Assembly (NCBI GenBank): GCA_050084515.1
Contig: CM114271.1
Span: 18,414,001-18,478,000 of the forward strand
DNA from: Blasia pusilla
Taxonomy: Eukaryota
DNA: 64,000 bases
Direction of reading: 5' to 3'
Below are positions 12,611-62,400 of this stretch, piece after piece (the stretch's first letter is position 1; every line of letters begins with the position of its first letter). The position numbers were made by a program, and so were the translations under genes. Below the pieces are notes generated by a model that worked only from the letters and a program-made list of their open reading frames with translations, ran no database searches and was not told where the DNA came from.

Positions 12611-12689
12611 ATCAGCTACCCCATGGACCGTCCATGTGGCATGCCCATCTCAAAGAAGTTTTCGGCTAATCATACTCAACTTCTCAATT

Positions 12690-14280: not shown

Positions 14281-14289
14281 CCGTAGTCT

Positions 14290-20759: not shown

Positions 20760-23700
20760 TCTTTCTTTTCTTTGCATCCCCATATTCTTGCTCTATAGGA
20801 GTGCAAGCTAAAAATCTGAAAACTCCTTCTCTACCTTCAAAGGACCATCTCTCAACTTCTCCCTCTTCCTTTCATGACCTACTCATACAATAAGGAATTG
20901 AACCGGTCTTGTTCCATCCTTATTTCAAATACAGGCATAATAAGACCCATCATCCATGACTTTGGTCTCCAGTCTAGATGCTGTGATGTAAGGTTGCCCA
21001 AGAATCATAGGATAAGTAGCTCCATTCTGAACAAAGAAATTTTGCTTAATCAACGCATCTCTGATACGAGTTTTGACGTATGGACAAGCACCGTAGAGTT
21101 CACCTTTTTGGTTGTTAGCCGCTCGTAGAACCCATCCATGCCCTGTATCAATTGGCCACATCCCTTTGTCGTATACACTTCGCGACATGATGTTGATCTC
21201 CGAATCATGATCAACGAGAGCCAGATCTGACTCTTGAAGAGAGCCAAGTCAAACTGTAGCCTCCGTCGTTGCACTTGCCCAATATGACCGAGAATAGTGT
21301 CCACCATTGTGCCTTTCTTCACCTTGTTCTGTCAAGGCTTCTCCTACTCTCGCCTCTTCTTCCCTCTTCTTCCCGTAAGTCAAGCTTTAGTCCAAAAACT
21401 TGGCAAAGCTCTTCATCTTCTTCTTCTGTGATGTCCGTATCCAAAGCCCTCACCATCACCATATCTGCAGTCATCTGCCTCTTCCTTTTGATCAAATCTA
21501 TCATCAACTCATGAAAGTCACATTTGGTTATTCCCAAGAATCTCCTTTAAATTCGTTCTTGTCCCTATATTAGACAGCAACTTGTATGTAGGAGTCTTAC
21601 CCTTGGTCTTTTGAGAAGACCTCAATTCTTTCTCCTTCATTCCACCTTCTTTCATTTAAGAATCCATCATAGATTCAGATGTAGAAGTACCTTCTTCTCT
21701 TGATGGTTGCGCCTTTGGTTACCCTTTCCTTCTTGCGGTCCTCGCTCTTCTTGCAGCTTCCTCGGGATCAACACCATCATTGTTGCGCCTCCTCTTCTCC
21801 TCCACACAAGCATCTTGCAAACTCACATGTTTCTCTTGTGCTAGGTATGCTTTAACACACCCAGCTTCCACTGGATCATCCCATCCAGTCACATGATGGA
21901 TAGTCTCTGCCCCTCGTATCATCACTTCTCGAGGAAATTGTAATGATTCACTTTTATATACAGATACAATAGGCGCTTCTATTTTTACTGCAAAGGTATC
22001 AGAATCTAATACCCTAGTGGCAACTCCTACTTGACTTCTCACTAAGCCTTCCATTCCTTCTCAACCAAAGTTGGTATTCAACGGCATGTCAGTCTACGTT
22101 GAATGAATCTTCCCATCTTTGAAGTTTACAATTCCATTATTAAGAGCTTCAGAAAACTCCTCACATTCTCGACGTTTATGCTCAACACTATCTCACAAAG
22201 TTCCTACTTGTCGAAGGAGCACCAACACTAGGATTCCTATCAAGTTTATGCTCACCCATTTCTACTCTCAATTCTCTCAAACCTTTCACCAACTCATCTA
22301 TAGCAGAATCTTCAAGTTTTGTTGAAACGAGCTTAGGCAATGGATTCGAAATTGATACCTCCGACTTGAATAGTGCGGTTCTACCTCTACTTCGGTTTTG
22401 CTTTGTAAGGATAACAACATCTTCTTCCACTTTCTTCCAATAAGTGCTGACCTCTCCTTCTTAGGTCTTGTCCACCAACATTATGAAAAGCTTGTCCTCC
22501 TAATTCTCGTCAGCCGCCTCAAGGAATAACTCAGTTTTCCTCAAGTCTAGAGTTGCTCTTTCGGAAGAAGAAAGTTAAAAAACACCGCTTCTCAAACTTA
22601 CGCAATAATTCATTTGGAGTCATTTCCTTCCCTAGACGTTGCCCTATCTATTCTAAAAAACTCCTCTTAGTCACCCTATCCACATCATCATCGAAAAATT
22701 TTCCTTTCAGCAACTGCTCATACTCCTCCCACAAGGTTGGATTTTCTGCTCTCAACTTCTTTACTTGACTACGAATCTCTGGTATTAGAGCTAACTCAAA
22801 ACTTGACACCATGTCACCTTTGGATACAAGGTTTACCTCCATCTCATAGACGTTCTCTCAAACATATTTGGTGATGTTCCTCCCATAAAATCTCCCCAAC
22901 TTCTTTACAATCGCTTGAAGAGCCCTTGTTGATCTTTGCTCTCCTATGTGAACTCCTCCTCGTTGGGAGAAGATCCTCTGCTCCCTTAGTTCCCATTGAT
23001 GAAGTACTACCAAAAGTAGTCATCTTGATAAGATTCCAACTTGAAAATACAATCTACCGCCTCAAAGATCTCTCAGTGGAAGCACCATTTGTCGTATCGA
23101 GAGCCTTTCTTCGAGTAAGGGAAGGCCTTCTAGCTGCGGAAGACGTGGTCGATGCAAGGTGAACTCTCTAAGAAGTTCTCCTTTCTCAATACAAGATTAT
23201 TATGTATACTCTCCATTCCTCATGATAGGTATCACAGATGGAAGTGCCGAGACGATCACTTCTTCGTAACATCGGACCCCGATATTCTTAACTATAAAAT
23301 CCTTATAAACTACTTTACGCTTGTACACGAGGAAGATAGCGCAATTAATGTTGAACCCTACTTGAGCAGGCCTATTGACGTCCATGAATCGCTATATAAG
23401 GACAAACAAAGTACAATTCCATGTCCTTCCATATGTGACGATAGGAAGAATCACCGGTATTGGAGATTTTATGATCTGGTTCATGAACGCCTCCCCAAAA
23501 TGATAAATTAAATAACGAGTGAACCAGTGCCTATCTAGAAAGAGTATCTTGATATGGTGTGGATTGAGGAGAGAAAAGTCATGCACTACTTGTGCTCCAC
23601 CCCTATCCATGTTTGACAGATAATTTCTATTCTCCTCAAGAATGGGCTTTGGCGGAGTTATTATCCCAAGAGGGGTAATCCACTCTCATAAGCAAAGTAA

Positions 23701-24368
23701 CAAGCCAAAACATTCACTATTTTAGTATGACTAAACTCCTATAAGATTATAAACCTCTCATCTCCATACACACACACACCACACTCTAGAAACCTCTCGG
23801 AGAATAGACCATGCTCAAGTTACTCTCCCAAGAAGGTGATCCACTCTCATTGGAAGAAAAAACCATCCTAAAGCCATACACTCAAGAGTGACATGAGAGA
23901 CTCAAGATGTGCAATAGAAGGTGATGAACCCTTGAAGGTCCCTCCTCTTTACATACTCACAAGTAATCCACAAGAGTACAAAATAGAGCTAATCTTATCT
24001 TGTGCCACATGGCTTCCTCTCAAGGCTTATCCAATCACATTTTGACACGAGTAGATTTCCTCTTATCTCTTCCAAAATATCCTCTTTTATCCATTTGATA
24101 TTTTCCAAATTACCCCAACTAACCTAGCCACCAACCAAGCCTACTTTTTCTTTTCATTAAATCACCATCCTCACTACTTCACTTTATAAAGTTATCTTTT
24201 ATTTATTACCTCTTTTCTTAAAGTTGGGCCCGCATAAAAGAGGCACCATAAAGAGATTTAAACATGAGAATTTCCTTTTCCTGAGTTAATTTATTTAATA
24301 CTAATAAAACTCTATCTAACACTTAACGAGGAAGGATTTTACACACTGGCTGATTTTACTATATGACA
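20760..24368 (-). mobile_element. Truncated Gypsy element (5' LTR, gag, aspartic protease) inserted in the MULE-like element
   Basis: LTR at 23434-24368 and gag-like ORFs at 22648-22842, 22188-22430 and 21719-22054. Protease LVDHDSEIN...MILGQPYI at ~20925-21220. Confidence 0.75.
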
Positions 24369-24610
24369 CCGTCGGAATCCGACGGGTTGCTATTTTGGTC
24401 AGAAAAAAGTTCACCATGCAATACGCCTGAATCCGACGGTTTGCAATTTTTTCTGAAAATTTTTCATCGTCCAACCCGTCAGAATATGACGGGTTGTTAT
24501 TTTTTTTTGAAAAAATTTCACAATGCAACACGTCGGAATCCGACAGGTTGCAAGTTCCTTAAAGCAAGATAAATTAATCTTGCAACCCGTCCAATTTTGA
24601 CGGGTTGCAA
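24369..24610. repeat. Cluster 3 of the 27-bp palindrome
   Basis: ccgtcggaatccgacgggttgc at 24369, with further variants to 24608. One more copy lies at ~26302-26328. Confidence 0.85.
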
Positions 24611-30098: not shown

Positions 30099-30290
30099 TT
30101 AGTTTGCACGTTTCACGTTATATATAGTTGGGAGGATGCCCCAACTATATATAGTTGGGGCATATCCATTGTCTCCAAGGAACCCTAGTAAAAGGTGGTG
30201 CAAACATGCCATATGCCATCCTCTCAAACATCCATCACATACTAGCATAGCGATTGCACAACGGAACCACACAACATACATCGCAATCCT
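30099..30290 (-). pseudogene. Isolated PHD-finger fragment of the Gypsy family
   Basis: MLVCDGCLRGWHMACL matches the PHD at 41878-42015. Confidence 0.75.
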
Positions 30291-30469
30291 ACAAGAACTA
30301 CTGCTAAGCTCGGATCAACTGTACCGCGAATGTTCAGAAGATGACATGGATGACAAGAATGCAACTAACGATAGAGCCACCTCCAAGAGATAGAGCTTGA
30401 GAGCTCATTCTCTATTTGTAAATTGATCAAACCTCTCACAACAACAAAATCTCACATGGTGTGCATAGT

Positions 30470-31116: not shown

Positions 31117-31473
31117 ACTCCCACATGGTCAAGATACACTAGCTTGGAGTTCTTGCAAACGCCACAACACCACAATTATGCTCCACACAAGAAATTGAGT
31201 CCCATTTTCTCTTCTATTGAGAACGAGTGTGCATCTTCTTGAGGATATAAAGTTGAATCCAAATTGTAAACTCTAAGGAAATGTGCAATCAACCGTGCTT
31301 CTTCCAAACAACCATATTCATAAATCGGATATACACTATTGCAACAGTAAGAGAAAGTGTACACAAGGACTCCCAAAATGTGTGTGATCTTACACTCCTA
31401 GCCCACTCTTCAAGAGAGAATCCAGGCTTAATACATGCAAGCTGCATTGTAAGACAGATTCCAACACAGTCTG

Positions 31474-32492
31474 GTATAGTAAAATCATCCACTCTGTAAA
31501 CTCCTCTCCCATTAAGTGTTAAAGAGAGTTTTACTAGTATTAAATAAATTAGCTTAGGAAAATAAATTTTACATGTTTAAACCTCTTCAGGGTGGCTCAT
31601 TTGTGCGAGCCCAACTTTAGAAAAAGAGGTAATAAATAAGACATGGGAGTATAAAAGTAAGTAGTAGGGTAGGTGTATTAATGAAAGAAAAGCAAAACTA
31701 GTCTTGGTTGGTGGCAAGGGTAGTCAGGGTAGTTTAGAAGATATGAAATAAGTTGATGAGGATATTTTGAAAGAGATAACGTATAATCTACTTGTGTCAA
31801 AATGGGATTGGCTAAGCCTTGAGAGGAAGACATGTGGCACAAGATAAGATTAGCCTTATTTTGTATTCTTGGCGATCCCTTGAGAATATATAAAGAGATG
31901 ATTTTTTTAAATGTTCATCATCTTCCACTTCATTTCTTTAGTCTCCCTTATTGCTCTTGAGTGGATGAAGCCCATCTTGGATATATGGAAATTGGCTTGT
32001 TTGGTCTTCCAACGAGTGTGGATTATCCATCTTGGATGGATGGAAATTAGCTTGTTTGGTCTCCCAATGAGTGTGGATTACCCATCTTGGGAGAATCACT
32101 TGGTTGAGTTCTATTCTTCGAGAGTTTCAAGAGTCTGATATGAAATGGTTATTAAGGGAGAGAAGTAGTCTTAGGGGAGTTTTATCATGGTAGGGATAGT
32201 AGATGGTTCTGGCTTGTTCTTTTTCCAATGAGAGTGGATCATCCTTCTTGGGATAGCAACTCCGCCAAAACTCATTCTTTAGGAGAGTAGAGGATGTCCG
32301 TTAAGTATGGATAGATGTGGAGCACGAGTCGTACATGATTTTCCTTTCCTTAATCCATATCACGTTTTCGTATAGTAAAATCACCCACTTTGCAAACTCC
32401 TCTCTCATTAAGTGTTAGTGAGAGTTTTATTAGTATTAAATAAATTGACTTAGAAAAATAATTTTTTCATGTTTAAACCTCTTTATGGTGCA
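31474..32492 (+). mobile_element. Decayed LTR of the second Gypsy family, with its start repeated in tandem
   Basis: Reverse complement of ~13460-14280. The gtatagtaaaatca...ctcctctc..attaagtgtt start occurs at 31474 and again at ~32370. Confidence 0.7.
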
Positions 32493-35400
32493 AAAGAGTG
32501 GGTTATCACACGCCGCTTCTACCGTTGTTGAGAAGGTCAAGAAGAAGGTAATATACCACATCCTAAAGTATGCTTTAATATGAACACTTTCACATACTTT
32601 TTCTCTCTCTCACTAAAACTCGTTTGGTGTAGATAAAGATAAGATTTATCATACTCATGCAAGCATTAGTGAGAAAGGCAAGTGACAGTTATAAATTCCC
32701 AAGGTGAATCTCTCTACCAATTCTTGTTTTCATTTTATGATATATTTATTTCATTTTTTCTTGCTGAAATATGGATACAAAAATTATGTAAACCTCGCTA
32801 AAAAGAAGTGGAGATTGTGAGAATAAGTTGCATAATTTATTATTGTACATCCTATTTGTTGTATAGGTGAAGCAATAATAGACATACATGTTCCACCAGA
32901 ACTGAAGAAGAAGGTTAAGATAGCCAACGAATTGGTTGGGAGTGTGGGTAGTATGTCAAAGTGTGATCTAAAAGTGCTGAACACCAAGAAGCAAAGGGTA
33001 AATATTAAAGCTTTGCTCCATTTGCAAGTAGAGTTTATGTGTTCTTTGTGGACATGTGACAACACTATGCATGCATGTGTGTTTCCTTTTTCATTTTCAT
33101 GTACCCAACTAGGTGAGGCTTGGGGGTTTGGGGTTTAGGACCATAAGCCTCACCCAACCAGGTGAGGCTTGTGGGCTTTTCAAGGAAGTTATCTATAGAT
33201 GGATGGAGCTTCACCAAGATAATGAATGTGGTTATAATAGTTAATCAACTATTGGAATGTTTTTATGGTGGCATTTAATCAATTATTTTGGATTGGCATG
33301 TGTAGTGATATTTGGGAGATGTGTATCCATGGGAAGGATATTGGTCTTGGATTGGTCAAGGTGGACCTAAAGGATACAATGTATTCTGACTACAACTATG
33401 GGAGCCGAACACAATGGATGAACATGCTCAACTCACACTAGGAGATGCGATAAGGACTTCTATCATTTGGCTAGAGTTAAATGAAAAAAAGCTTGCTTAT
33501 TAGATATTCTGATTTTGATAACTTTTCAGAGCTTTGGAGATGGCACAATGACTTCTTCAAGCCATTCTTTTATCTTATTTCCACAGTTTTCATTCAATCT
33601 CTATTTTGCTAATTTCCATATTGAGAAGATTGTGACTCTTATCTATAAGGACTCCTTAGGTTGGGATTTTATTGTACACAACGGAGCTATGAATCTACAT
33701 ATATGTCATCTTCACGATTGTGATTGTGTCACATCTGAGTAGCCGATAAGCCGAGATCTATCGTGGATAGGCGTAGGATCCAGCGGACTATCTTGAGTGT
33801 AACTTTGTCCCACAGTGTCGGATGAGGTTGAGGATAGATCCATTGTGTCAGGAACGTTGTTTCTGACAACTTTCATGTTGAGGTCTTTCACAGCCGGATG
33901 ACTTGTTGACCAGGTCACCCGCCCCTGGTAACCTGTGCGCGCAAATTACCAAGGGGAGGGCTATTTTTAGGGGAAGAGCCTTTTGGCTCTTCCCAACCCT
34001 ATATAAGAGAGGAAGATGGCTTTCTTAAGCCATCTTTCTCATGTTAGGCCCTTGGAGCACCTCCCTTGTATGTGTGTGAGATAGGACTAGGGTGCTAGCG
34101 TCCGGATTCCTTGACAGCACAGGGTGGACGAGGCTCGATATGCCGATGTAGATTGAGGAGTGGAGTTTTAGGCCAGGTGTGCTGTTCTTACTACTCTTTA
34201 TTTTTACATGAGAAAGATGGCAGGGGGCTAGTGGGAATTCGTTGTTTGCAGGAAGGCAAGCGAGTTGCCTTCGTCGAGAGCCCCTCGAGACGCGTGTGTT
34301 GCGGGTGTTTGTCATTTTTCTGTTTGGAAGGCCGTGGGCGGAAGCGCTGTCCTTTTTTCTTATATTTTTGTGGTGCAGATTGATGGGGACAAGAAAGAGG
34401 TGTAAGAGTTGCAGTTGCGGACGGGCAGTATAACATTGTCTACTAGCCGGAATGTCGGGATTTTGTAGGAAGGAGAGTTAGGGCTTGCAACCGCCGAGGG
34501 GCTCTGAAGTAAAGGGCGGCTAGGTCGTGAAGGCTAGGGTTAGGGCGACGAGCGTGTACGGGCGGCAGACGGGTGGTGACGAGCGGCAACGAGCGCTCAC
34601 GAGCGCGGGCAGGCGGCGACAGGCGCTGACGGGCGGCGACAGGCACGGACGGCGCGCGCGCCCCCTGCAGGTAGGCCACGGTGGTCGTGGGCCACCTCTC
34701 CTCCCGTTTAGGGCCAAGGTCCCAAGGTGCGGGCCAAGGTTCCCCCCATTTAGGTAACGTGGTGGCAGGGAGGATGTCGATGTGGTGAGTGACCGATATA
34801 GTTGGACAACGGACGTGGATGATGTTGAGCTACGTGGTTGAAAGTTCGGATGTGGTCGGGCAAGGCCGGATGTGGTCAGGGTCATGTTCACGTGGTCGGA
34901 CAGGGCGTACGTGGTAGGAGTGGAGCCCGACCAGGGTGTGTCAGGTTACATGCCGCGTGTGGGGATGGACGGAGAGGTTTGCATGGCATGATGTTTTTGG
35001 GGCGCGACACGGCATTGCGAGAGTTTACGATGGAGGGGCAGTGCGCATGATGCCGACGGGTTGTCTGCATCTGTTGACGGGAGGATCGACGTGTTGGTAA
35101 GAGGAGAGTGTTGTGTTGCGGAGGTTGTCATATCATATGGAGGAGTGCATGTTGACGGTGCAGCAGGTTGGAGGGCGTGATCACGTTACCCTTTTGAGTC
35201 CCTTTTCCCGCACTTGTCATGTGTGATTGAGAGTGTTGGGTATCGGGTAGTAGCTGGTGCTAGGTGGGTGCAGTGATGGTGACGAGTGTAGATTCTGTTC
35301 ATGTGTAGCATGTTGGTGGATATACGGCGGTTGTCGAGTAGGGGTCGCATGTATGACCCGAGAGAGTGTTGCTAGGTTAGATGAGTCAGTTGGGAGGCTC

Positions 35401-35739
35401 ACGGTGAGCCCGAGTGTTGAGTATGCGTGAGGCCGGGTGTGTCATCACGGGATTGAAGTTAGCATAGGTGAGCTAGTGAGGAGTGTGGAAGACTCTCGAT
35501 GAGTCTGAGTGCTTGAGCAGGTGAGACAGGGTTGTCATCACGGCATTCTTCCAGGGATCAGAAGAACGGGGTAGTGCGAGCAGTAGTAATGGTGTGACAC
35601 GGAGTGGAGTGAGATACCGAGGGGTTACCAGTGAGGAGCTACCTCGACATCCATCCGTGGCAGGATCGTCATCACTAGACATTGGGTCGGGTGACGAGAT
35701 CGCAGACAGAGACAGTAGTACTTGGCAGGAGATGGACAA

Positions 35740-37320
35740 CATGGGCCATCGGGGCATGCGTCGTTTCTTGGGTGCAGTGGGCACCATAGACTAAGATGAT
35801 TTTATCTAGGAGTTCGACACGTGGTGCGACTTCCAGGAGATACCGACCCCGACGCGGTTCAACCCTTTCATGTCATGGAAGGGGTTGTTCCAGCACTTGG
35901 AGGATCCTCCGATGGATGACTACATGGAGTTTCGATCACTATATTCAGTAGAGATTGATGCCTGGAGGATGTATTGGGCTCCAGTGTATGTGTCCACTAG
36001 TGGTCGCGAGGCATATGATGGGATTGTGAGAGGAGGGAGACCCACACCATGAGCCCGAAGACTAGATGGAGAGGAGGGCAGTGACACAGGCGATGTGGCA
36101 GAGACCTCTAGTGGTAGAGGGCAACCCAGCTTCAGCCCCACAGTGGAGTTCTTCCGACAGTTGGGGAAGAGCTACCAGGGCGTACGCACCGACAAGCTGA
36201 AGAGTCTGCAGGATTTTCAGCGACGATCGGGTGAGAGTCTGAGACAGGAATTCACATGCATGAGGAGGCTGATTATTGCTACGTTTGGAGTGACTGAGAC
36301 GCAGTCACTGTAGTATTGGTAGGGGGTTCTGGATCAAGAACTACGGAGGAGAGTCCAAGATGAGGTGCTGATTCACACAACGAAGCCCACATTGAAGGTG
36401 GTCTTTGAGTTTTCTGAGCGTATTGAGCTCAACATGAGTGAGGAGCAAGTAGTGACCGCTGGATTTCTCGAGAGTCGACGGGTCCACGAGCGACGGTCAC
36501 CCCACAGGTGCCACAGCAATCACTAGTACCACGGGAGCGGGCCAGTGTGCCCACAGAGCAGGGCGGGTATCGTGAGCCTATGAGGCAACAACCCGTACCT
36601 ATATATGTTGCCCAGCAGGGAACGATGTGGTCTTGTTGGACGTGTGGAGGGGCCCCTAGGCATAGAGACTGCCCACAGCATGGGAGAGGACCACTAGTGC
36701 CTTTGATTGCTCAGGAGCCATAGAGGATGGCCCCACCACAGATATGGTCATACTAGGGATAGATGTTTTGACCTTCGCCGAGGGGCACGTCCAGAGGTAG
36801 GCCGAGAGCATGGGGGCGGTCGTCCTGCAGGAGGTCGGGGAGTTCTTCCTGGACGTGGTGGTAGAGGACCACCACCAGCCATAGGAGATGGAGTAGGAGC
36901 ACCAGAGCCGGCACTTCTCTGCCTAGAGAGCAGGGCGGGTACCGTGAGCCTATGAGGCAACGACCCGCACCTACATATGTTGCCCAATAGGGACCGACGT
37001 GGTCTTGTTGGACGTTTGGAGGGGCCCATAGGCAGAGAGACTGCCCATAGCATGGGAGAGGACCACCAACGCCTCTGATTGCTCAGGAGCCACAAAGGAT
37101 GGCCCCACCACAGCACCAGTGTGACCATTGCCACAGATATGGTCACACTAGGGATAGATGTTTTGACCTTCGCCGAGGGGCACGTCGTCGGAGGTAGGCC
37201 GAGGCCTGGGCGTCGTCTGCGGGCAGAGGTCGGGAGTTCTTCCTGGACGTGGTGGTAGAGGACCACCACTAGCCAGAGGAGATGGAGGAGGAGCACCAGA
37301 GCCGGCACTTCTCTCACGCA
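35740..37320 (+). pseudogene. gag with zinc knuckles
   Basis: LKSLQDFQRRSGESLRQEF is a retrotransposon gag motif. Knuckle-like motifs CWTCGG...HRDCP and CDHCHRYGHTRDRC are present. There are many stops. Confidence 0.8.
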
Positions 37321-37718
37321 TCGATCAGTTGGAGTAGAGGATTGTTGCCATGACGATGATGCAGCTTAGGGAAGGCACGCAGCTGCGAGCAGCTAGTGTG
37401 ACTCCAGCTTCTACCTCTTACCCTGACCCGGGTGAGGATCTTGCTAGTATGGGATTTATGTGTAGTGCAGCCCAGGTTGAGGCAGTTGCAGTGGTGACTC
37501 AGGGTGTTGCAAGAGGCACCGAGCCATCGAGAGGTGGAGTTGAGATTGACCCACCAGAGGGGACCGATGGGCAGCAGGCCAGGGTTCCATAGCCATTCAC
37601 ATTGTCAGAGGCACTACACACACCATCGATGGTGCCTCGACGACCAGCAGTGCCTACAGCTCAGGCACCTATGTCGACGTCACGAGGAGTTGGAGTGACA
37701 ACTCCTATGCCGGCTTGA

Positions 37719-38440
37719 GTGGAGTTAGTGTCAACCATAGTGTTGGAGGTGGCCACCAGAGTGAGTCAGACTCCACTATTTTCCGCCATAGAGTTGGCGA
37801 CGTTGGGAGTTGGACCAGCTGAGGTGTTCTGGTTGGCCGCCACGTTGGGTGAGCATGGAGAGATGACTGCTTCTTGTTCAGAGGAAGTTGAGGAGGTGGT
37901 GGACTTGCCCTCAAAGCCCGTGCTCGGGATGTTCCCCACCGAGTTATGGCATGCGGCGGCGACGAAGTTGGTAGATAGGCCAGCTCGAACGGCCATAGAG
38001 CGAGCAGTGGTGATACTTGGAGTAGTGTTATTGGATAACCGAGCTGGAGTATTTTTCTTGGTTAGTCCGACAGGGACAGTATACCACCCGCAGCGCGTCC
38101 TATTTGCCTCGGGAGCGCAACCCTTGATGTTAGGGAAGGCGGCGTGTTTAGCGTCGGGGTTACGGAAGGCCGACATTAAGCCTTGTCCCTTCCAGATACG
38201 GACCTCGATTGGGGGCGTGTCACCCACGTTGTATATGACTCGACAAGAGATAGTTGTCAGAGTCCAGCCAGAGCATGAGACGGATAGTGCTATGGTGCGC
38301 ACATGTGCGATTACGACACTTGTTGAGTCGTACCATGTGTTGGTGGGGAGTACAGTGTTATATCCCCTAGGATTCATCCTTGACTTCTAGGAGGAGACCG
38401 TTGCTTATCGGCCAGAATGGCAGTCAGGTGACGGCCCGAT
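37719..38440 (+). pseudogene. Retropepsin-type aspartic protease (catalytic Asp lost)
   Basis: RVLFASGAQPLMLG corresponds to the usual LLDSGA motif; VLVGSTVL is the second motif. Confidence 0.7.
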
Positions 38441-38820
38441 GAGTTAGCTACCCGTGCAATTTGCACGACAAGGTGGTCGATCACGAGGCGAGTCTGTGAC
38501 CACGTTGGCGGCTTTCACAGGTAGTGTTAGTTGGCCAGGAGAGTTGTTGGAGGGGAACGCACATGCGGAGATTGTCCCAGTAGCGGATAGTCCCACGGAG
38601 AGACAGGCCATGGCGGGTGTCTCTTCCCATGTTGGCAAGACCTCTTCACCATTGTGGGGTACGACTCGAGAGCTACAGAGGAGTGTCGACGACCTCGTGA
38701 GGCAGGCATGGAGTCATGCTTTGATCTTGAAGCAGCGAGAGTCACGTGGCAATCGGGCTCTTGGCGTGGAGACATTGACTGGATACCACACCCATTGTGT
38801 GGCAGTGCCCAGAGGAGGGT

Positions 38821-39700
38821 GTTAGGGTGTTAGATCTCTTTGGAGGGATTAGCACCGGATTGGCGGGCATACGGGTGCATCAGTACCTTTATGTGGAGAG
38901 AGATGAGACCGCGCTGCGAGTATCATTACGTCACTTGGCGAGATTGGTCCAGAGGTATCTTGAGTTGTTGCCGGTATCTGCAGTACGGGGATATCAGCAT
39001 ACACTACCCGCCAACATCTCTTTGGTGGGGGCGCAGGATCTTGATAGAGTTGGCACCATTCATTTGGTGATTGCTAGATGGCCATGTTAGGGTCATTCAT
39101 CAAGCTGGTCGAGGATTTTGATTGCGGGATCCGAAGTCAAGAATTTTTTGGGAGATGTTGCGAGTAGTACGACACTTGCAGGAGAGTCAGACATGTTCTC
39201 TAACGTACATCTTGGAGAACGTGCCGTTGTTGGAAGACACTCGTGCACGTGTGATGACAAGTGTGTATCAGGTGAGGTCCTGGTTGGGACCTGCTGTGTT
39301 ATTAGATGCGGTGAGAGTTGGATCACGTGCATACGATGGAGTCCATAGAGCACCACATCTCACAGTGGATGCTATTTTGGACTCAGGGCGTCGATCTCAG
39401 GTGGTGACATGGGATGATAGACCACCGTTGGCCATGGCCAATAAGGTGGGGGAGTTGAGGGCAGCCTTACCTACGTTGGTGAGCTTCCCAGCATCCCATG
39501 CCTTTTGTCACAGAGGGCCAGGCATGATTTGGGATGAGGTGACCGGAGCATTGGAGGAGCCTACAGCAGATGAGCACGAGCGCGCCATGGGGTTCGCTAC
39601 TGGTACTACGGCGGTGCCAGGGATGATTGAGGCATCCCGGAGACAAGTATTGGGGAAGGCGATGGACCTTAACTCTCTCACATGGAAAGTCAACCTACGT
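38821..39700 (+). pseudogene. C5 DNA cytosine methyltransferase domain (DNMT3-like), copy 1
   Basis: Motif I VRVLDLFGGISTGL, motif II YLYVE, motif IV HLVIARWPC*GHS, motif VI YILENVP, motif IX EHERAMGF and motif X RRQVLGKAMD occur in canonical order. Confidence 0.92.
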
Positions 39701-40089
39701 ATGGCTGAGCAGAGACGGATGCGAGTGTCATCCATGCCGTCACGTCCACGAGTTGGACCATTGCCTATAGGGTTTGTACATGCATTGGTTGGGGGCAAGA
39801 CGAGGAGAGATAGGCATCCATGGACTTCCATGGACGTTGTTCGAGCAGAGAGTGCGAAGGCGGCTCGGATAGCACATATTCATTTTTTGGATGCGGAGCA
39901 TGGTGTAGGAGGTCAGAGTGGAGTGGTTGTTGCGGAGGTGGCTAGGGTTGCTACATAGCAACCAAAGCCGGAGGTTGCGTCCTCTCCGAGTGAGGTCACG
40001 ATGGAGACTTGGGAGCCTATGATAGGTCTCAAGTTGATAGGAGGAGAGCGACGGCGAGTTCATAGGTTTTTGATAGGGCATGTCAATTT

Positions 40090-40795
40090 TTTTCCTTCAG
40101 TATGAGAGACTTGGGTACACTAAAGGGTCCCGGGATACGGATTGAGTTGGCTAGTGATACGCCGATCTTTCGTCGACCCTACAGGTATTCTGATATGGAG
40201 CGAGCCTTGATTCAGAGCAGGAGTTAGGACTTGTTGGAGGCAGGACTTGTGGAGTTATGACATGGGGAGTATGCATTTGCCACAGTCATGCCGGCAAAGA
40301 AGGATATGTATGGCAATTGGACGGATAGGCGGATGTGTGGAGATTACCGTCCTATCAACCAACAGACGAGGTCAGATCGATACGCCATGCCTACTCCTGA
40401 GGAGATCTTTGATGGGGTAGGGCATGCAAAGATCTTCAGTACTTTAGATCTCCGTGCTGGCTATCATCAGCTTCCTATCAGGTTGGAGGACAGGGAGAAG
40501 ACAGCATTCTAGGGGATAGATCGGTTCGGGAGAGATTGCTTGTATCAGTGGAGGTTCTTACCATTTGGATTGAAGAACACGCCTGCAGAGTTTCAGAGAG
40601 TGATGGATAGGATTCTGGCTGGCTTGGATTTTGTACGATGTTACATAAATGATATTCTTATCTTCGGTTCCACGGTTGAGGAGCATGAGCGACAGTTGGA
40701 GGAGATGTTTCGGCGATTGCAGTTACATGGACTGAAGTTACATCCAGGCAAGTGCAGATTCTTTCAGGAGCAGATTGAGTACTTGGGACACACCA
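40090..40795 (+). pseudogene. Gypsy reverse transcriptase
   Basis: RMCGDYRPIN, FSTLDLRAGYHQ, LPFGLKNTPAEFQR, YINDILIF (YxDD changed to YIND) and KCRF...YLGH. Confidence 0.95.
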
Positions 40796-40977
40796 TGGTT
40801 GAACGCCTAACCTATACATAGGTTAATACTGGGATAAATTGAGATACACGTGTGTCCCGTCTGCTGAACGCCTAACCTATACACAGGTAATGACTCAAGT
40901 GGTGGGGTTGGATGATGAGTCTTTCGATCCGGAGGTTAGTGAGGAGGCGACATGTGGTCGTGATATCCATGACGACA

Positions 40978-42018
40978 TGGGACTTTGCGGGACCTTTGCC
41001 ATTGACGGGGCATCATCATAGGTACGTGTTGGTCATGGTGGAGCATTTCTCCAAGTGGATAGATTTGGTGGCACTACCAGACAAGGCGAGCGAGGGAACA
41101 GCTAATGCATTTCTAGATCATGTGCTTATTCACTTTGGTGCACCGACGGAGGTGTTGACTGACCAGGGTACTGAGTTCAGGGGAGGGTTTCAGGCCTTGT
41201 GTGATCAGGCGCTGATAGATCATCGCACCACGTCCAGAGATCATCCTGAGGCGGATGGGTTGGCACATAGAGTGGTACAGACGGTGAAGAGAGGATTGCG
41301 CAAGTATGGCTTGCAGCGGGGACACTTGAGGGAGTGGGACCTACAGTTGCCATGGTTGGCTATGGGTTATCGCTTAAGGCAGCAGGCATCCTTGGCGTCA
41401 GTTTCACTGTACTTTTTGCTCTTTGGGAGAGAGCCAGATGCACCTGCAGCGATTCGACGTGACATGGCGGAGATGTTAGATCTTGATGATCCAGATGTTT
41501 TGGTACAAGCATGTTCTCAGAGGGCAGAAGTTTTTCATAGAGTTATGCCTATGGCCTTTGAGAACTTAGCTATTGCCCAGCATAGAGATACATTGAAGTA
41601 CACGACCATTCGTGGAGGAGGTTATCGTCCAGGGATTAGGAGGTTTCATCCTGGAGATTACGCGTATTTACAGCAGGCGGCACCCACGACGCTAGATGTC
41701 ACTACAGAGCGCATGATCCTACGTGTGCGCGAGGTATTACCGACCGGAGTCCTCATGTTGGAGGGATGGGATGGGATGGTTTGGAAGGATCATGTGCGCA
41801 ATTGTGCGCCATGTCATCTTCCGAACGTAGATGTGACGGTGGATCCGAGCTTGGCAGTGGTACCTGCAAGCTTGAGGTGTATGTTGTGCGGATCTGCGAG
41901 GGGTGCAGCCACCATGTTGGTATGTGATGGTTGTTCTCGAGGGTGGCATATGTCATGTCTGACCCCCCCTCTTGATGTGGTTCCCACGGGACGATGGATG
42001 TGTCCGAGATGTGTATAG
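40978..42018 (+). pseudogene. Integrase core plus C-terminal PHD finger
   Basis: DFAGPLP, VEHFSKW, LTDQGTEF, HPEADGLAHR (usual E lost) and LLFGREP. A C4HC3 PHD lies at 41878-42015. Confidence 0.93.
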
Positions 42019-42649
42019 GGTAGTAGGTCATGTCAGAGAGATGTGATATTTTCTATCTGGAGTTGGGGGGATCCAACTACCAGCTAGGGGGGCGGTTGTG
42101 TGATCTCCATATATATGTATGAGTTGATTTTTGTACATGTGTGGATCGACCCGTGTGTGGGGAAGATTGGTGTTATGTGGTGTAGATGTGACCAGCAATG
42201 TATGTTGTGTAGCGATATGTATGCGCACGACAATTGTGACTATTGCATCCTGAACGTCTCACTCACTCTCTGTTGTTGGGAGATTTTAGAGTCAACAAAG
42301 ACTAATATAACTAGAATGTAATATGCTGCAATAATAAAACGTCAATATTATGATGAAAAAAATAATAACTTACAATAATTATAGTGTGAGTTCTTTTCAA
42401 TAGAACTAACTTAGTCATTTATATGACTAAGCCAATCCAGAAAATAACCAAATTAGTAATTGCATGTGACTCATCCAATCGTTAATATAACTAGTGCAGT
42501 GACCATTATACCAATACAGTCATTTAAATAACTCATGTCTCTACTCATTTGTAATAACTGAGCTAGTTATTTATGATAATGAGCAATGACACAACCAGTC
42601 GCAACTTGACTCATATAGTCATTTTGAATGACTCTATAAGTTGGATTCA

Positions 42650-42822
42650 TAGTACCCATAGCAAACCCCATGGCGTGCTCACGCTCATCAGGAGTAGGCT
42701 CGTTCCAAGGCTCGGGTTTCCTCATCCCATTTCATGGGTACTCCTTCTTGACGAAAAGCATGGGATGTTGGGAAGCTCACCAATGTAGGTAAGGTTGCCC
42801 TCAACTCCTCCACCCTATTAGC
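42650..42822 (-). pseudogene. Third fragment of the retrotransposon DNMT (motif IX region)
   Basis: ANRVEELRATLPTLVSFPTSHAF...ERERAMGFAMGT matches 39436-39610. Confidence 0.8.
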
Positions 42823-43019
42823 TATCGTCTTCGGTGTAGGGTTGAACACAGACAAAGTCCGTCTCCGTAGACATATGCATGTCCATGTCCGCGGACTTAT
42901 GCCCCTCCCTAGGACGAACATGTCTGTGCAGGCTCGGGAACCCGCAGCCCGCACCCGAGACAGCCCCCAAAACCTTCCAAGCCCATAGTAGGCACTCGGG
43001 TTGGCCGAACCCGCACCGG

Positions 43020-46034: not shown

Positions 46035-48673
46035 TTACAAAGGGACCTCTCGTATTTCCAATTCCAAATCGGTTGTATTATCATCCAAATTTACCGTGTC
46101 CAATTCCATGGTGGTTCTCTCTGTATGCATGGGAAGAACCACCAGTTCTGCTCTATGTAGCTCCTGTAACTGGTAGAGTACGTGCGACATCCGGGGTCGC
46201 ATTGAGGGCACATGCTGCGTGCATGTGTAGGCCAGCTCCACCACCTTCTTCACCTGTGAGTAATTTGGAACGGTTCCTATGAAAATGTCTAAGAGTTCTG
46301 TCCATGCTTCCGCCTGGAACAATGGTGTAGCCCATTCGAAAATCGTCGGAGTCTCTGAAGACTCCCCCTCAGCTGCTACAGTGGGCTTACGCCCCGTAAC
46401 TAGCTCCAAAAGCAAAACGCCGAAACTGAAAATGTCGCTCCTGGTGGTGAGTTCATTGCGATATACAAACTCCGGAGCCAAGTAACCATGGGTTCCAACA
46501 ATCACAGTTGGCTCGTGGGTCGCCTCACGTAAAGCCATATTGACAAGCCCCACACCTACGAGGTGGGGATTAAATTGGTTGTCTAAGAGAATCGCACTAG
46601 CTCGCACATTCCGGTGCACCACATTAGGCTTCACTTTGTCGTGTAAGTACCTGTTAGCCAGCAACACCCGCACACGCTTAGAACGGACACGCGGCCTTCT
46701 GATCTAAGTTTTCAAGCTGGCGTAGGCGGCACCTGAATGCTCAGAAACCCTAAGCAGCTGACAGGCAGGGCTCAAGTCGAAGAGGGTAGAAAGACAAAAC
46801 GCCAAGCTCAGATATGGAGACAATCAGGAAGCCGTACAAGAGAAATCCACAAGAGGAGAGGAGAGGAGAGCGGAGGCGCAGCTCTTCGAACGTAAAAACG
46901 AAGTCAGGAGGGCGGGAAACACTCACGCTAGACTATGCGCAACACCGGTAGCAATTTGCATACGCGTGTCCCAATCGAGGGGGCGTGCGCCACTGGGCAA
47001 ATCATGAAGCCATTTTTCCAAGGACCCATTCGATATGAATTCATATACTATGTAGCCCTCGCCGCGATAAAAGCAGCAGCCCTTCATAGCTACCAAGTTC
47101 TCGTGCCTCAAACGTCCAATCTTCCTCATCTCGGCCATGAAATCCTTCTCCCCCTGAACTCCAGATCTCCTTACTTTCCTAATCGCCACGGGAGAGCCAC
47201 CCGGCAGGATACCCTTGAAAGTATTACTATCTTCTGCAGCTCCAAGTTTGTTCTCCAGCGAGAAACCGTCTGTGAAGGCCTCTAATTCCGCGTATGAGTA
47301 CACTCTCCAGAGAGGAGTTAACGGTGTGGTCGCCAGGAACGTGCGATCTCGCCTGCGCCGGCGCCTTCTCTTCGTCCGTCTGTAGGCGAGAAGCCATATC
47401 GTAACTCCTAAAGTTGTCGTTAGAATGACAGAGCTGACCACCGACAGTATGATGATATACTCCTTGTGCGATGACCTGCTCTCACATGACTCGCCTGGAG
47501 CCAAGCGCACGGCTTTAGTAGGTGGGTATAACAAAGTCAATACAGTTACGGAGGGTTATACGAAAACGAAAATTAAGTGGCAAAATTCTGCAGTCCATAG
47601 TCGGGTGGGACCACAGGGGTTTTCTTCGGGGCAGACTGAAGGAGCAAATTTTAGGTGTCTACCCACAACACGTGCATGCAAAAATCCAGGAAAAGCCCAC
47701 AAAAGCCCACCACTGCTGCACATAATCGGATTGATACAAGGAAACCGCCAAGACTTGAGAAATTGAAGCTGGAATTTTATGCCTCCTGAGTGGGACGAGT
47801 ATTATGTGGGATCTAACCTTGGTCGAGACTACAAATAAGAGGATGCCCGGTATCACAGCTCTCCCAAACGAGCGAAGCATTCACAAGCAGCGCACACCAC
47901 CTGACGTTACTGTAGCCAGGGCAGCTCAGATCCGAGCAATTGCTTTGAGGTGCCACTAGTGGAGGGAAAAGTGATCCGTTCCATCGCACGTGACAGTCAA
48001 TCCAATTTGGCTGGAGATAACCGCTACTAGATCCTTGTGCCGATGCTCCTAACCAGCAACCTCCTGGTCCACTGCTATCGCAGAGCGCTTCGAGAAACTG
48101 AACCTCGGTCGTCGACGCGACAGAAGCTAGATGACCACCCTCCGCCGTGCAAGTGTTTTCGGACTCGTTCCAAGTGCTGAAGGTGTTCATCAAGGTGAAA
48201 CAGCGTTGTTCAACCGGTCCGTCTTGCCAGCCACTCGGGCAATGGCCTGCAGATTCCCAACGCACCCCCAATCAATGGTTTCCTTCTCCTTTTCCATCTG
48301 TGCCAAGGGAGGCACCGCTTTGTGCTCCTGTTTGCAAGATATGTTCTCCCTGAGACACAGACGTAAGCTACCTCGATATAAATCGGAAGTAGAACTAACA
48401 TCAATGTGCAGCCATACGCAATACGCTGAACGCCTAAGTTCATTGCTTCTCAGAGTGCGTGTTGGGTGAAAAGTTCACCCGGACGAATGCACTTTGCTCG
48501 GTAACCTCCGTAGAAGTCGAGAGAAAATATTAGTAGGGAAAACTGGAAGCAGGCCAACCTTACGCTAAGAAGATGCGGAGCACGTGCTTACCACATTGAA
48601 TTGTACTGAGACAGCTCAAAATGCACAAGACCACCAGCTCGTACTTTAGTGTGCACCACAAGCATACCCTCAT
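46035..48673 (-). CDS. C-type lectin receptor-like kinase (At1g52310-like), about 564 aa, 4 coding exons
   Basis: Exons 48673-48592 (signal peptide), 48246-47818 (CTLD: CPSGW, WNESENTC, HLAS, WLG), 47494-46927 (TM, basic stretch, kinase N-lobe) and 46650-46035 (GTHGYLAPE, SDIFSFG). All introns are GT-AG and phase-compatible. The first exon is the least certain. Confidence 0.9.
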
Positions 48674-59462: not shown

Positions 59463-62400
59463 TCAAACGCCGCCACCAGTGGTCTCTGGATTTTGAGAGT
59501 CTGAAGGCAATGGTGGCTCATCCACACTGTGTTGGCCACAGAGCAGTGAACCAGTTTGAAAAGAAGGACCAGTTGAAACAATCTGAGTATCACCAGGATG
59601 TGGAACAAGAGTAGGTGCCCAAATGCTTTTTGCAACACTACTTAAAACAGGTGCTTGCAAGGGATGAGGTTGTGCAAGGTACATATTTTCTCTCAGATGC
59701 GATGGTATGTCTGGGGGAGCAACTACATGTATTTTCCCCACAGACGACCCTGATGCACCGAGTCCAAGAGTCCCACTTCCAGACAAACCATCCACTGCAT
59801 TAACTGAATCTCTATGGAGGGCTTCCCAATGCTGCACAAGTTCCTCAGAAGGGCCAACACCTTGAGCACTTTGACGATCTGCTAGAGCAAAAATGGCATC
59901 CATCACAGCATACGGTACATTTTGATTGTGGCCTCCTTGAGCAGTCAAGGTGGGAACTACTTGGGGTGTGGGTCTTACAAACACTCCGACATTGCCTGAA
60001 TTCATAGGCTGCTGTAAAGACTCATTTCGCCACTCATTCTCCATTCGAAGATGGTCTCTTATCGGATCACAGGCTACCTCTGTAGCATCAGTTCCATGAA
60101 CATTGTCCCTCAGCCCTTCAGTTCTTTGAAGATCCTGAACTCCTCCTGGTTCCATGTGCTCTGTAGTGTGGAGTGAGCCAGTTTCATCCCCATCAACATC
60201 ATGCGCTTCTCGAGTAAGACGGGCTGTCATCTTGGACACTGCTTCCTGCACACTACAAAGTTCCGATTTTGCATCTTCGTTCTTATAAAGGACAACCCCC
60301 TGCAAACCACCCATCATACTGTTCCACAGTTCTAAGTTTCCCACAGAAGCCACAGGCCATGACTGTGAACCTTCTCCTGACAGAGTAGAGCCTCCTGCTC
60401 TGCCAAATGTAGAGGGTGCAATAATAGGATCTTTGCATAATTTGGACATAGTATTGGAAGGCATAGAAACAGGACCTGTAGTGGCAGGAGGTACAGGTTG
60501 CCATAACTTATGTGAGCTAGAAACAGCAGGGTGTCCAGAATTGGACTGAGGTTGAGAAAGAAGGGACTGGCCAAAAAGCTTCACATCACCCAGGCGTAAT
60601 CGCTGTGATTCTGATGGAGTTGCCGCTCGTGTCTGTTGTGGCACCAGCATTTGTGAACCCCTCTGTGATTGCACTTGCAGATCCTCCCGAGGATGGAGTC
60701 CCAGCTTAGGCGCACTCCTCTGTTCTATGATGTCAGAATGTCTTAGCAGGTCGGCATCTGAGAAAGAACTTTGATAAGGGCCCCTCAATAATGCCAAAGC
60801 TTGTGAATGTTGCAACTGCTGTTGTTGGAGTTGATGTTGTTGAGCGAGAGAAGGGTGCTCCTTCTGGAGCTGCTGATGTTGTGCTTGTTGTAACTGCTTC
60901 TGAGCTTGCAACTGCATTTGGTGAGCCAATTGCTCTTGCTGTAGTTGTTGTGCCTGTTGAAGTTGCTGAAGGAGCAACTGCTGCTGCTGCTTTTGCTGCT
61001 GCATGATCTGCTGCTGCTGCTGCTGTTGAAGTAAAACTTGTTGTTGTGAAGGGTGATGCCCACGGTTACCAAGTCCAACTTGAGGTCGTTGCTGACCTCC
61101 AACTAGTTTGGGCCTCGGGACTAGTTGCTGCTGATGCACAGAAGATGCAAGAGGTAGGGGCTGCTGGGAATGATGGTGCACTAGTTGGGGCTGAATGTGC
61201 TTTGCAACTTGAGCAAGATGCTGCTGTTGTTGCTGCTGAGCATACACCATCTGCTGTAGCTGATGAACCATGTGCTGCGGTTGGTGAAGCACCAACTGAG
61301 AAGCCTGCTGGTGCTGTTGCTGAAGGTGCTGCACTGCTTGCTGCTGCAGCTGTTGAACAACCTGATCCAAGAGTTGCTTCTGACTTGAATTCATCATCTG
61401 TGGAGTAGCCTGCTGCTGCTGTTGCTGCTGCTGTAGGGCAACCTGTGACGACAGAGATTGCTGTTGTGACTGATGGCCAACCATTACTTGAGGATTTTGT
61501 GCAGCCAAGAGCAAAGACTGCTGGGGACTGGGACCAGGAAATGTAGATACAATGCCTGGCTGAAAAAGAGGCAAGACTCCACCAGAAATGGCAGCTGCAG
61601 AGGAATAGTCCTTTACAGAACACATCCTCCGAATGATCTTTTGCATGTCCCTGGCAGTGGAAGAGTCATCACCAGATTGACAAACAATTGGATTGAACTG
61701 TGCGTATCCTAAGCCTTCTGCACCTACTACTGGTGTTCCAATACTTGTGTTGATAGGCATCATAGAATTAGAACCAACGTTTTGAGACACATCTTCACAA
61801 GGAAGTGATACCTTAGTTGGACAAATTTGCCCAACAGATCCAGCATTGCTGCTAGTATCTGACTCCTCAGCTTTGCGCTTCCTATTACAACCACCCCTCG
61901 TACTTAGACTGACTAAGCTGTCTGTTGACAAGAATCCCAACTTGGCCTTCGAATTCTGATAGTAAGTCTTTATTTGTGTCAAAGACTTAGCTGGTAAACT
62001 GTCATGGAGAAGGGTCCAATCTTTACCATGCCGCCTTATAATATCTGCAAATTTTTCTTTCTCCTCTTGAGTCCATGAGGTCGGCTCCCTCCTTGGCTTG
62101 AACTCCCCTGCTGCATTTACCCTAGGTCCTCTCTCCTTAGCATGCCCACTATGGGCCACAGGAGGTGATGTGACAGCAGCAGAAGGAGTTTGTGGCACAG
62201 GCAATGCTGCTCCAGCTAAGAAGGCTCCACCACTCTCAAGAGACACAACTGGTTCTGACTTTACAACAATTGCATGATTATTCAGATCCGCTTCAGCTGC
62301 AACACACGGGCCACTAGGATCAATTGGTACTGGTGTCGCAATCTGATTGCCAAATTCTTGATCAGATTCTGCTCTGGTAGACTTTGGCACCGTGACTACC

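Follow-up and report, generated by a model that had tools for sequence, protein, structure and literature searches.

The element analysed here, a Gypsy copy in the genome of Blasia pusilla, has its closest described counterpart in KnitGypsy-Dnmt3 of Klebsormidium nitens (de Mendoza et al. 2018, PMC5890265), in which a Gypsy pol carries a Dnmt3-type methyltransferase and to which a figure legend assigns DIRS-type repeats (A-coding-B-A-B) together with Gypsy domains. The copy occupies positions 33727–42232 of a stretch of 64,000 nucleotides (assembly GCA_050084515.1, contig CM114271.1, forward-strand positions 18,414,001 to 18,478,000; hereafter the window, numbered from its first letter). Its priming signal recalls self-priming of the Tf1 type, in which the primer-binding site (PBS) is complementary to the transcript's own 5′ end (PMC7175516), and a survey of plant long terminal repeat (LTR) elements records self-priming for Tcn1 and TAR (PMC6317226); the word 'methyltransferase' is absent from the main text of that survey, and its available passages do not mention the present layout.

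The ends of the window copy are non-redundant, with a block B at the 5′ end and a block A at the 3′ end, and this B...A layout is not a one-off; it is a trait of an abundant Gypsy family. To our knowledge, retroelements with a DDE integrase are held to insert linear complementary DNA (cDNA) by its ends, circles being by-products and junction cleavage a retroviral side route only. Judged from integrated copies, the scales tip slightly toward a green-lineage Dnmt3/PHD Gypsy clade in which the attachment site of the integrase has shifted from the ends of the cDNA to a palindrome within the LTR, such that for each insertion a site resembling a circle junction would have to be cleaved internally and the host would have to join the real ends of the cDNA, and one-LTR intermediates would integrate directly to give B...A copies. 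The layout itself has been noted before, in the KnitGypsy-Dnmt3 legend; an internal attachment site combined with self-priming is a new proposal, which would surprise specialists. A literature search, with most subscription journals and Repbase outside it, found no account of the mechanism of this layout, the term 'knitgypsy' occurring in one paper and 'permuted LTR' together with 'retrotransposon' in none.

With KnitGypsy-Dnmt3 the window family shares a C5 methyltransferase in pol and split direct repeats, the latter also a property of the DIRS order, and a K. nitens integrase-PHD protein (P0050), which may not belong to the named element, is 53% identical to that of the window. The text parts of the KnitGypsy-Dnmt3 paper give no termini, target-site duplication (TSD), priming mode, PHD finger or mechanism, and the comparison is by description only; the window family differs in being abundant, with A-only and solo forms. 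Like Tf1, Sushi and Tcn1 (PMC7175516, PMC6317226), it has a self-complementary PBS directly after the 5′ repeat and no tRNA PBS, but those elements carry two full LTRs at priming-defined boundaries, whereas the inserted ends of the window family lie inside the LTR; the pairing spans 14–16 nt in the window family and its relatives against 11 in Tf1, the C-terminal domain is here a PHD finger, and the likeness is one of features. The repeat order first-internal-second-first-second is that of Ngaro, PAT-like and VIPER elements (PMC6681497), from which the window family differs by a DDE integrase, TG...CA ends and a 4-bp TSD, no tyrosine recombinase being found in the Pfam scans given below. Cutting of an internal palindromic CA/TG junction by a DDE integrase is paralleled by cleavage of the retroviral 2-LTR junction (PMC1905944, PMC4372172), although in retroviruses the palindrome lies where the ends of the cDNA have been joined and its cleavage is a side route, whereas the palindrome described here lies inside each LTR, has a 2-nt spacer and would apparently offer the only route, the cDNA-end joint being left in the product. 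Ginger elements resemble the family in their TG...CA ends, short TSDs and a DDE enzyme related to the Gypsy integrase (PMC2836005). Ginger and IS3 are DNA transposons without reverse transcriptase, whereas the window family has gag, protease, reverse transcriptase, RNase H, PBS and polypurine tract (PPT). The IS3 family opens abutted ends with a short spacer during circle integration.

Termini of the window copy and family architecture

The left edge of the window copy reads ATTG/TGTCACATC (33723–33735) and the right edge GCACGACA/ATTG (42225–42236; a slash marks a joint or a cut). An earlier note on this DNA had taken ATTG as a TSD, with the caveat that attgtg repeats in the flanks weaken the match; the sequence confirms ATTG on both sides, both edges being family-wide termini, and the flank repeats are indeed present, the TSD nonetheless being genuine by those termini and by the 4-bp TSD rule of the family. 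The homology that the note saw between the 5′ block and an older block B holds (match at 5943–6295, 69% identity), and the 3′ end consists of block A only, with its start at 42095 rather than at 42097. As had also been claimed, there is no copy of A after the 5′ B: when A was aligned locally to 33727–35750 the score was 31, equalled by 28 of 300 shuffles, and no degenerate A copy downstream of the 5′ B was thus found in that interval. No empty site at the ATTG locus in other individuals was present among the joints listed; the flanks occur in X1 and X2, with no bridging piece.

The normal form of the family is host/TG-B-PBS-internal-PPT-A-gc-B-A-CA/host with 4-bp TSDs, which bears out the B...A-B-A parent structure postulated earlier (214 exact A-nn-B-A joints against 5 A-nn-B-PBS). 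The 30 best B matches in the genome comprise 15 host/B-PBS, 11 PPT-A-nn-B-A and 4 solo B-A, with no host/A-nn-B-PBS. Exact matching across the genome further gives 907 B+PBS, 501 PPT-A, 310 A-nn-B joints, 495 B-A and 3 B/A-nn-B. All five A-nn-B-PBS matches have the PPT upstream and are variants of the 3′ end, and none of the three B/A-nn-B matches is followed by the PBS. The 3′ ends were sampled at the first 100 listed PPT-A places of the 501 (99 elements; two classes corrected by eye), where 24/99 pass from A into host DNA as in the window copy, 64/99 read A-B-A and 11/99 continue from B into something else.

Among 20 paired family ends the 4-bp TSD is exact in 15, has one mismatch in 3 and two in 2; nine other A-only copies with both ends show seven exact 4-bp TSDs, one of 5 bp and one with a single mismatch. 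One A-only copy (L039) interrupts an older integrase fragment, the halves of which overlap by the TSD, providing a built-in empty-site control. Forty further B-A matches that were fetched include 25 solos, with an exact 4-bp TSD in 16/25 and one mismatch in 7/25.

A few copies depart from these forms. In L095, L103 and L034 the sequence after the second B is not A but a family copy in inverted orientation, which may reflect repair or the nesting of an inverted insertion; in L113, A-gt-B-PBS is followed by a tandem array of several units, each with the 3′ part of B, the PBS and a short leader. The A-gt-B-PBS order in contig L324 was considered as a circle and dropped, B being present once and the contig possibly a collapsed repeat.

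LTR extent and internal palindrome

In standard reverse transcription, the LTR spans the distance from PPT to PBS. Because the PPT precedes A and the PBS follows B, the LTR is here defined as A-nn-B. The spacer nn is GC, AC, GT or AT, that is, GC or a C>T/G>A derivative of it, in 104 of 113 copies, and these variants are consistent with an original GC in a methylated CAGCTG context. Given an ancestral GC with such derivatives, the A-B joint can be read as the palindrome GACAGCTGTC (GACA/GC/TGTC). Family insertions start at the TG of this palindrome and end at its CA. Retroviral integrases leave 2-nt overhangs on 3′ processing, which a cut after CA on both strands of the palindrome would match. 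The position of the insertion ends inside the priming-defined LTR suggests that the LTR of reverse transcription and the ends of integration have become separated, and further suggests that the integrase cuts a short palindrome within the LTR rather than using the cDNA ends.

Metagenome relatives were collected at 80 loci. A second family among them has an A of 115 bp and a B of ~338 bp, both unlike those of the window family, together with an identical PPT and palindrome, and occurs in both end forms with 4-bp TSDs (L299, L300 and L307 in the full form, L313 as A-only). At 64 metagenome loci, 25 ends were flagged A-only, 22 A-nn-B and 17 unassigned, numbers that are not rates, given duplicates and possible collapse. 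In L119, L052 and L140, spacers of 3–8 nt lie between CA and TG at the palindrome, possibly footprints of cutting and repair.

Self-complementary primer-binding site

The claim that no PBS is visible was right as to a tRNA-type PBS, none of which was found, host tRNA complementarity not being searched further after self-complementarity had emerged; the 64-kb window also contains no tRNA gene. The claim fails in that the 16 nt after B (ACATGAGAAAGATGGC, 34206–34221) are the exact reverse complement of 34029–34044, a match with a chance of ~1e-7 in 479 bp. The complementary site lies ~30 nt downstream of the TATA box, and the PBS would thus pair with the RNA 5′ end at its predicted position, as in Tf1 and Sushi. 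In the second family the primer/PBS pair is AGTTCTTTGAGT/ACTCAAAGAACT and in a third GACATTCTTGTCAAGT/ACTTGACAAGAATGTC; as the sequences differ among the three families and complementarity is kept, the pairing is conserved. A hairpin covers the primer in all three, the two metagenome families included, with a different sequence in each. The upstream arm of the hairpin would enter the transcript in the 3′ copy only and could keep that copy out of competition for the PBS; the whole-leader fold is not better than shuffles (z −1.05), only the stem being informative.

At PBS position 15, the G that extends the pairing occurs 26 times against one occurrence of the other transversion, a bias that occasional copying of the primer into the PBS would produce, although the 26 variants may share descent. 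A-only ends occur in 4/12 classifiable copies with the G variant and in 0/8 with the C variant (p 0.12; most of 40 windows missed the 3′ end), and truncations of B near the primer (L059, L146 and L034) show no template-switch pattern. Run X19 yields 1099 RNA reads on 33727–42232, most of them 90–95% alike, with a single start pile-up, at 33837. These reads run at a low level and mostly on one strand along the whole element, derive from other family members and include eight that span the A/B joint.

The B/A joint

The B/A joint connects the PBS-defined end to the PPT-defined start and corresponds to the joint of a 2-LTR circle. Among 98 unique B/A joints, 63 are exact, the others having one extra base (8 T, 4 G, 1 A), retained pieces of the PPT or of the PBS leader (L037, L047, L220, L198, L088, L112, L115 and also L013) or one-sided deletions. 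The 2-LTR junctions of human immunodeficiency virus (HIV) keep PPT, PBS and gag pieces, the same classes as these scars (PMC5618025). When copies were chosen on the A-nn-B joint only, the B/A joint was altered in 10/28 and the PPT/A joint in 1/29 (p 0.002; p 0.05 without the class with an extra T). Three joints with an extra G lie on separate branches of the tree. The second A of an element (A2) is closer to the first (A1) of its own element than to those of others (0.046 against 0.054; 0 of 20000 permutations; concordant subfamily markers), and the divergence between its two B blocks (B1 and B2) is 0.040 within elements against 0.057 between them. These similarities, together with the scars, fit an A2 and a B/A joint that are remade in each cycle.

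One copy (L180, G000:C1:45189555-45191697) ends A, keeps the 2-nt spacer (ac) and has a second A directly next to it, B being absent. It is compatible with occasional cutting at the second palindrome.

Predicted mechanism of insertion

Taken as a whole, the mechanism that we consider probable is that of a self-priming Gypsy element cleaved at an internal palindrome, with the cDNA ends sealed by end-joining. Transcription would start in B, and the RNA 5′ end would pair with the PBS after B and prime the minus strand, by analogy to Tf1. The plus strand would begin at the PPT before A, and the cDNA, made by standard LTR reverse transcription, would be A-gc-B-PBS-internal-PPT-A-gc-B. The integrase is then predicted to ignore the cDNA ends and to cut GACA/GC/TGTC in the LTR after CA on both strands, leaving 2-nt overhangs, a cleavage that has chemical precedent in that HIV integrase can cleave the palindromic 2-LTR junction (PMC1905944, PMC4372172); the TG-B and A-CA halves would be joined to the target with a 4-bp TSD. 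Only the palindrome of the 5′ LTR would be used, possibly because it is double-stranded long before the 3′ one is remade, the former being complete after ~620 nt of displacement synthesis and the latter waiting for ~9 kb. Capture at the 5′ LTR is favoured because the mirror form, which symmetric 2-LTR circles should yield with roughly equal frequency, is absent. The end of B and the start of A would be joined by host end-joining, either in a 2-LTR circle that forms ahead of integration or at a break left behind by it, to give B-internal-A-gc-B/A; if the palindrome is cut at a one-LTR stage (before displacement or in a 1-LTR circle), or if the break is closed by A-A annealing, the product would be B-internal-A. 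Opening at A/B had been proposed in the earlier note as one route for the window copy; it appears not to be peculiar to this copy but to be the way in which every copy of the family inserts.

If this is true, integration from circle-like substrates becomes directly testable in a natural lineage, and one-LTR intermediates, which are dead ends for other LTR elements, integrate directly. Split direct repeats would then have arisen independently of tyrosine recombinases, and the Klebsormidium layout would be explained. Programs that search for LTR pairs should miss or mis-bound such elements, in which B...A has no terminal repeat and the B1/B2 pair no TSD.

Origin of the B...A copy and alternative readings

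A-A recombination and a circle opened at A/B, both suggested earlier as origins of the window copy, yield exactly its sequence, and the copy by itself does not tell them apart; formation at insertion is regarded here as the somewhat likelier origin, because the A-only share is not enriched among older copies (7/29, 6/29 and 5/28 from young to old, for the 86/99 copies with enough sequence). With a constant A-only rate the fit improves by 3.0 log-likelihood units over a clock, and in the tree the A-only copies are dispersed and do not form a clade. The proxy used for age is correlated with the divergence of A1 from A2 (rho 0.52) and not with that of B1 from B2 in 12 copies.

Several observations weigh against this origin or against the mechanism predicted above. 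The mirror form B-A-gc-B-PBS-internal-A is absent (0/3 B/A-nn-B followed by the PBS), and a timing assumption is needed to account for it. The RNA reads of run X19, which are of low depth and mostly from other copies, show no pile-up at the predicted start, and a few of them (3+3) cross the B/A joint. The extra T of L081 is also found in its 5′ B and hence was inherited. Unequal exchange between repeats does occur, as seen in the rare expansions (A-gc-B)x2-A of L117 and L118 (L116 is also listed among the expansions), the two B copies of L117 having the same internal deletion in common. Solo B-A copies, which could be ordinary recombination products, are likewise without an age trend (8/24, 8/24 and 9/23), which weakens the age test. 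Finally, all the evidence comes from integrated copies.

The strongest competitor, to which we allow a substantial chance short of even, is that the copy inserted as B-internal-A-gc-B-A and later lost gc-B-A when its two A repeats of 138 bp recombined or annealed with each other. These lie only ~480 bp apart, their recombination would leave an identical sequence, and solo B-A is at least as common as the contracted form (of 495 B-A matches, 214 are preceded by an intact A end, and 25 of another 40 are solos); tandem expansions exist as well, yet only 2 were seen against 24/99 contractions, and the A-only fraction is flat with age.

Copying in the manner of Ngaro and PAT-like elements is improbable. 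In such a scheme the transcript would run through B2-A2, the minus strand would be primed at the RNA 3′ end, the B/A joint would be inherited via the RNA, the right A-CA end would be natural and an internal cut would be made at the left only. The missing mirror form would thus be explained without a timing assumption, and both the RNA reads across B/A and the shared repeat order (PMC6681497) agree with it, but the B/A joint falls exactly at the PBS and PPT boundaries with copy-specific remnants of both, three joints with an extra G lie on separate branches, the primer/PBS pairing is kept despite sequence change, and strong-stop DNA made by self-priming would transfer to B2, so that A2 would never be copied. 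Still less likely are free symmetric 2-LTR circles opened at either internal palindrome: the B/A joint resembles a 2-LTR junction, of the kind that HIV integrase cleaves, but the predicted mirror product is missing among 907 B+PBS ends, and this reading is largely refuted unless strong selection removes mirror copies. An ordinary Gypsy element with B-A as its LTR, the window copy being damaged, mis-assembled or flanked by a chance TSD, is scarcely tenable, for although solo B-A looks like a normal solo LTR (TG...CA, with the TSDs counted above), attgtg repeats lie in the flanks and no read or contig bridging the locus was found, there is no 5′ end with B-A before the PBS, the PPT always precedes A and not B, A-only copies carry TSDs of their own and the layout recurs in other organisms.

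Coding content and relatives

The domain order, from Pfam and tblastn, is gag-like, protease-like, C5 methyltransferase, reverse transcriptase (RT), RNase H (RH), DDE integrase (IN) and PHD finger, RNase H and the integrase N-terminus being assigned from other copies, as the window copy has lost them by deletion; the methyltransferase had gone unmentioned in the earlier note. The copy itself is dead, with many stops and frameshifts, a gag duplication of ~390 bp and a deletion of ~1.25 kb (Table 1). Its pol order of protease (PR), RT, RH and IN with a DDE integrase, the TG...CA termini with a TSD in the 4–6-bp range, the (self-complementary) PBS after the 5′ repeat and the PPT before the 3′ repeat are all those of Ty3/Gypsy elements, and only the two complete terminal direct LTRs are lacking (0/15 5′ ends among the best B matches). 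By proteins and chemistry the element is thus Ty3/Gypsy without two full LTRs, and with DIRS-like repeats and no tyrosine recombinase found. For the latter, six frames of copy L080 gave no Pfam match (the copy is frameshifted, and RT and the DNA methyltransferase (DNMT) were also missed there), and it is absent from the Pfam lists of relatives with DNMT-RT-RH-IN-PHD in a single frame, in which rve is present. Pfam scans of the window and of copy L080 gave no match to a chromodomain.

DNMT-RT-RH-IN-PHD stands in one frame in five relatives (P0162, P0163, P0167, P0170 and P0172), and relatives of the integrase-PHD protein with a named source are those of Calypogeia (78%), Marchantia, Sphagnum, Klebsormidium (53%) and Tetrabaena. 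Such relatives suggest a host among the bryophytes, probably of liverwort type. Among viral contigs there were no more than 3 weak matches. The window itself holds further members of the lineage. Two older Dnmt3/PHD members, one nested in the other, lie on the minus strand at 5472–8071 and 8084–12630, both with PPT-A followed by a 2-nt spacer and the start of B, and small PHD and methyltransferase fragments of related elements occur at 30142–30364 and 42650–42836.

Table 1. Features of the window copy, with an older relative for comparison.
Feature	Position	Strand	Basis or remark
Left TSD, ATTG	33723–33726	+	sequence; 4-bp TSD is the family rule
Block B, promoter-bearing LTR half, probably 3′ part of U3 plus R-U5	33727–34205	+	starts TGTC, right half of the palindrome
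TATA box, TATATAA	34000–34006	+	sequence; predicted transcription start ~34029–34032
Hairpin, upstream arm pairing with the primer sequence	34009–34040	+	fold z −3.2
Candidate self-primer (predicted 5′ end of the transcript)	34029–34044	+	complementarity and fold
Putative self-priming PBS, complementary to 34029–34044	34206–34221	+	907 exact B+PBS matches in genome
Gag-like region with CCHC-type knuckles, broken	35730–37370	+	motifs read by eye in translations; no Pfam match
Tandem duplication of ~390 bp inside the gag-like region	36548–37314	+	
Aspartic-protease-like region, broken	38090–38400	+	by eye, D-S-G motif in other copies
Dnmt3-like C5 cytosine methyltransferase, interrupted by stops and frameshifts	38800–39924	+	PF00145 4.7e-9 in copy L070; tblastn to window
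Reverse transcriptase, broken	39959–40797	+	PF00078 in copies L070 and L072
Site of ~1.25-kb deletion with short filler; RNase H and integrase N-terminus gone	40798–40980	+	alignment to copy L080
DDE integrase core and C-terminal PHD finger, open frame of 374 aa	40894–42018	+	PF00665 5e-11, PF00628 4e-11
PPT, AGCTAGGGGGGCG	42082–42094	+	also present in metagenome relatives
Block A, 5′ part of U3	42095–42232	+	directly after PPT; ends GACA, left half of the palindrome
Right TSD, ATTG	42233–42236	+	
3′ end of older relative, full form A-ag-B-A	5472–6506	-	second A split by ~300 bp; comparator

Other features of the window

A unit of 1.28 kb with the ends TGTCGT...ACGACA and CCGT on both sides has a copy of 89% identity 10 kb away and an inverted copy of 71% (13009–14284, 23089–24372 and 31466–32491). 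It may be a solo LTR or a Ginger-like non-autonomous element, and the ACGACA at its right end is shared with the end of block A. Pieces of host genes lie on the minus strand at 46035–47555 and 59463–63998, with protein kinase exons and an open stretch of 1511 aa that contains three Myb repeats.

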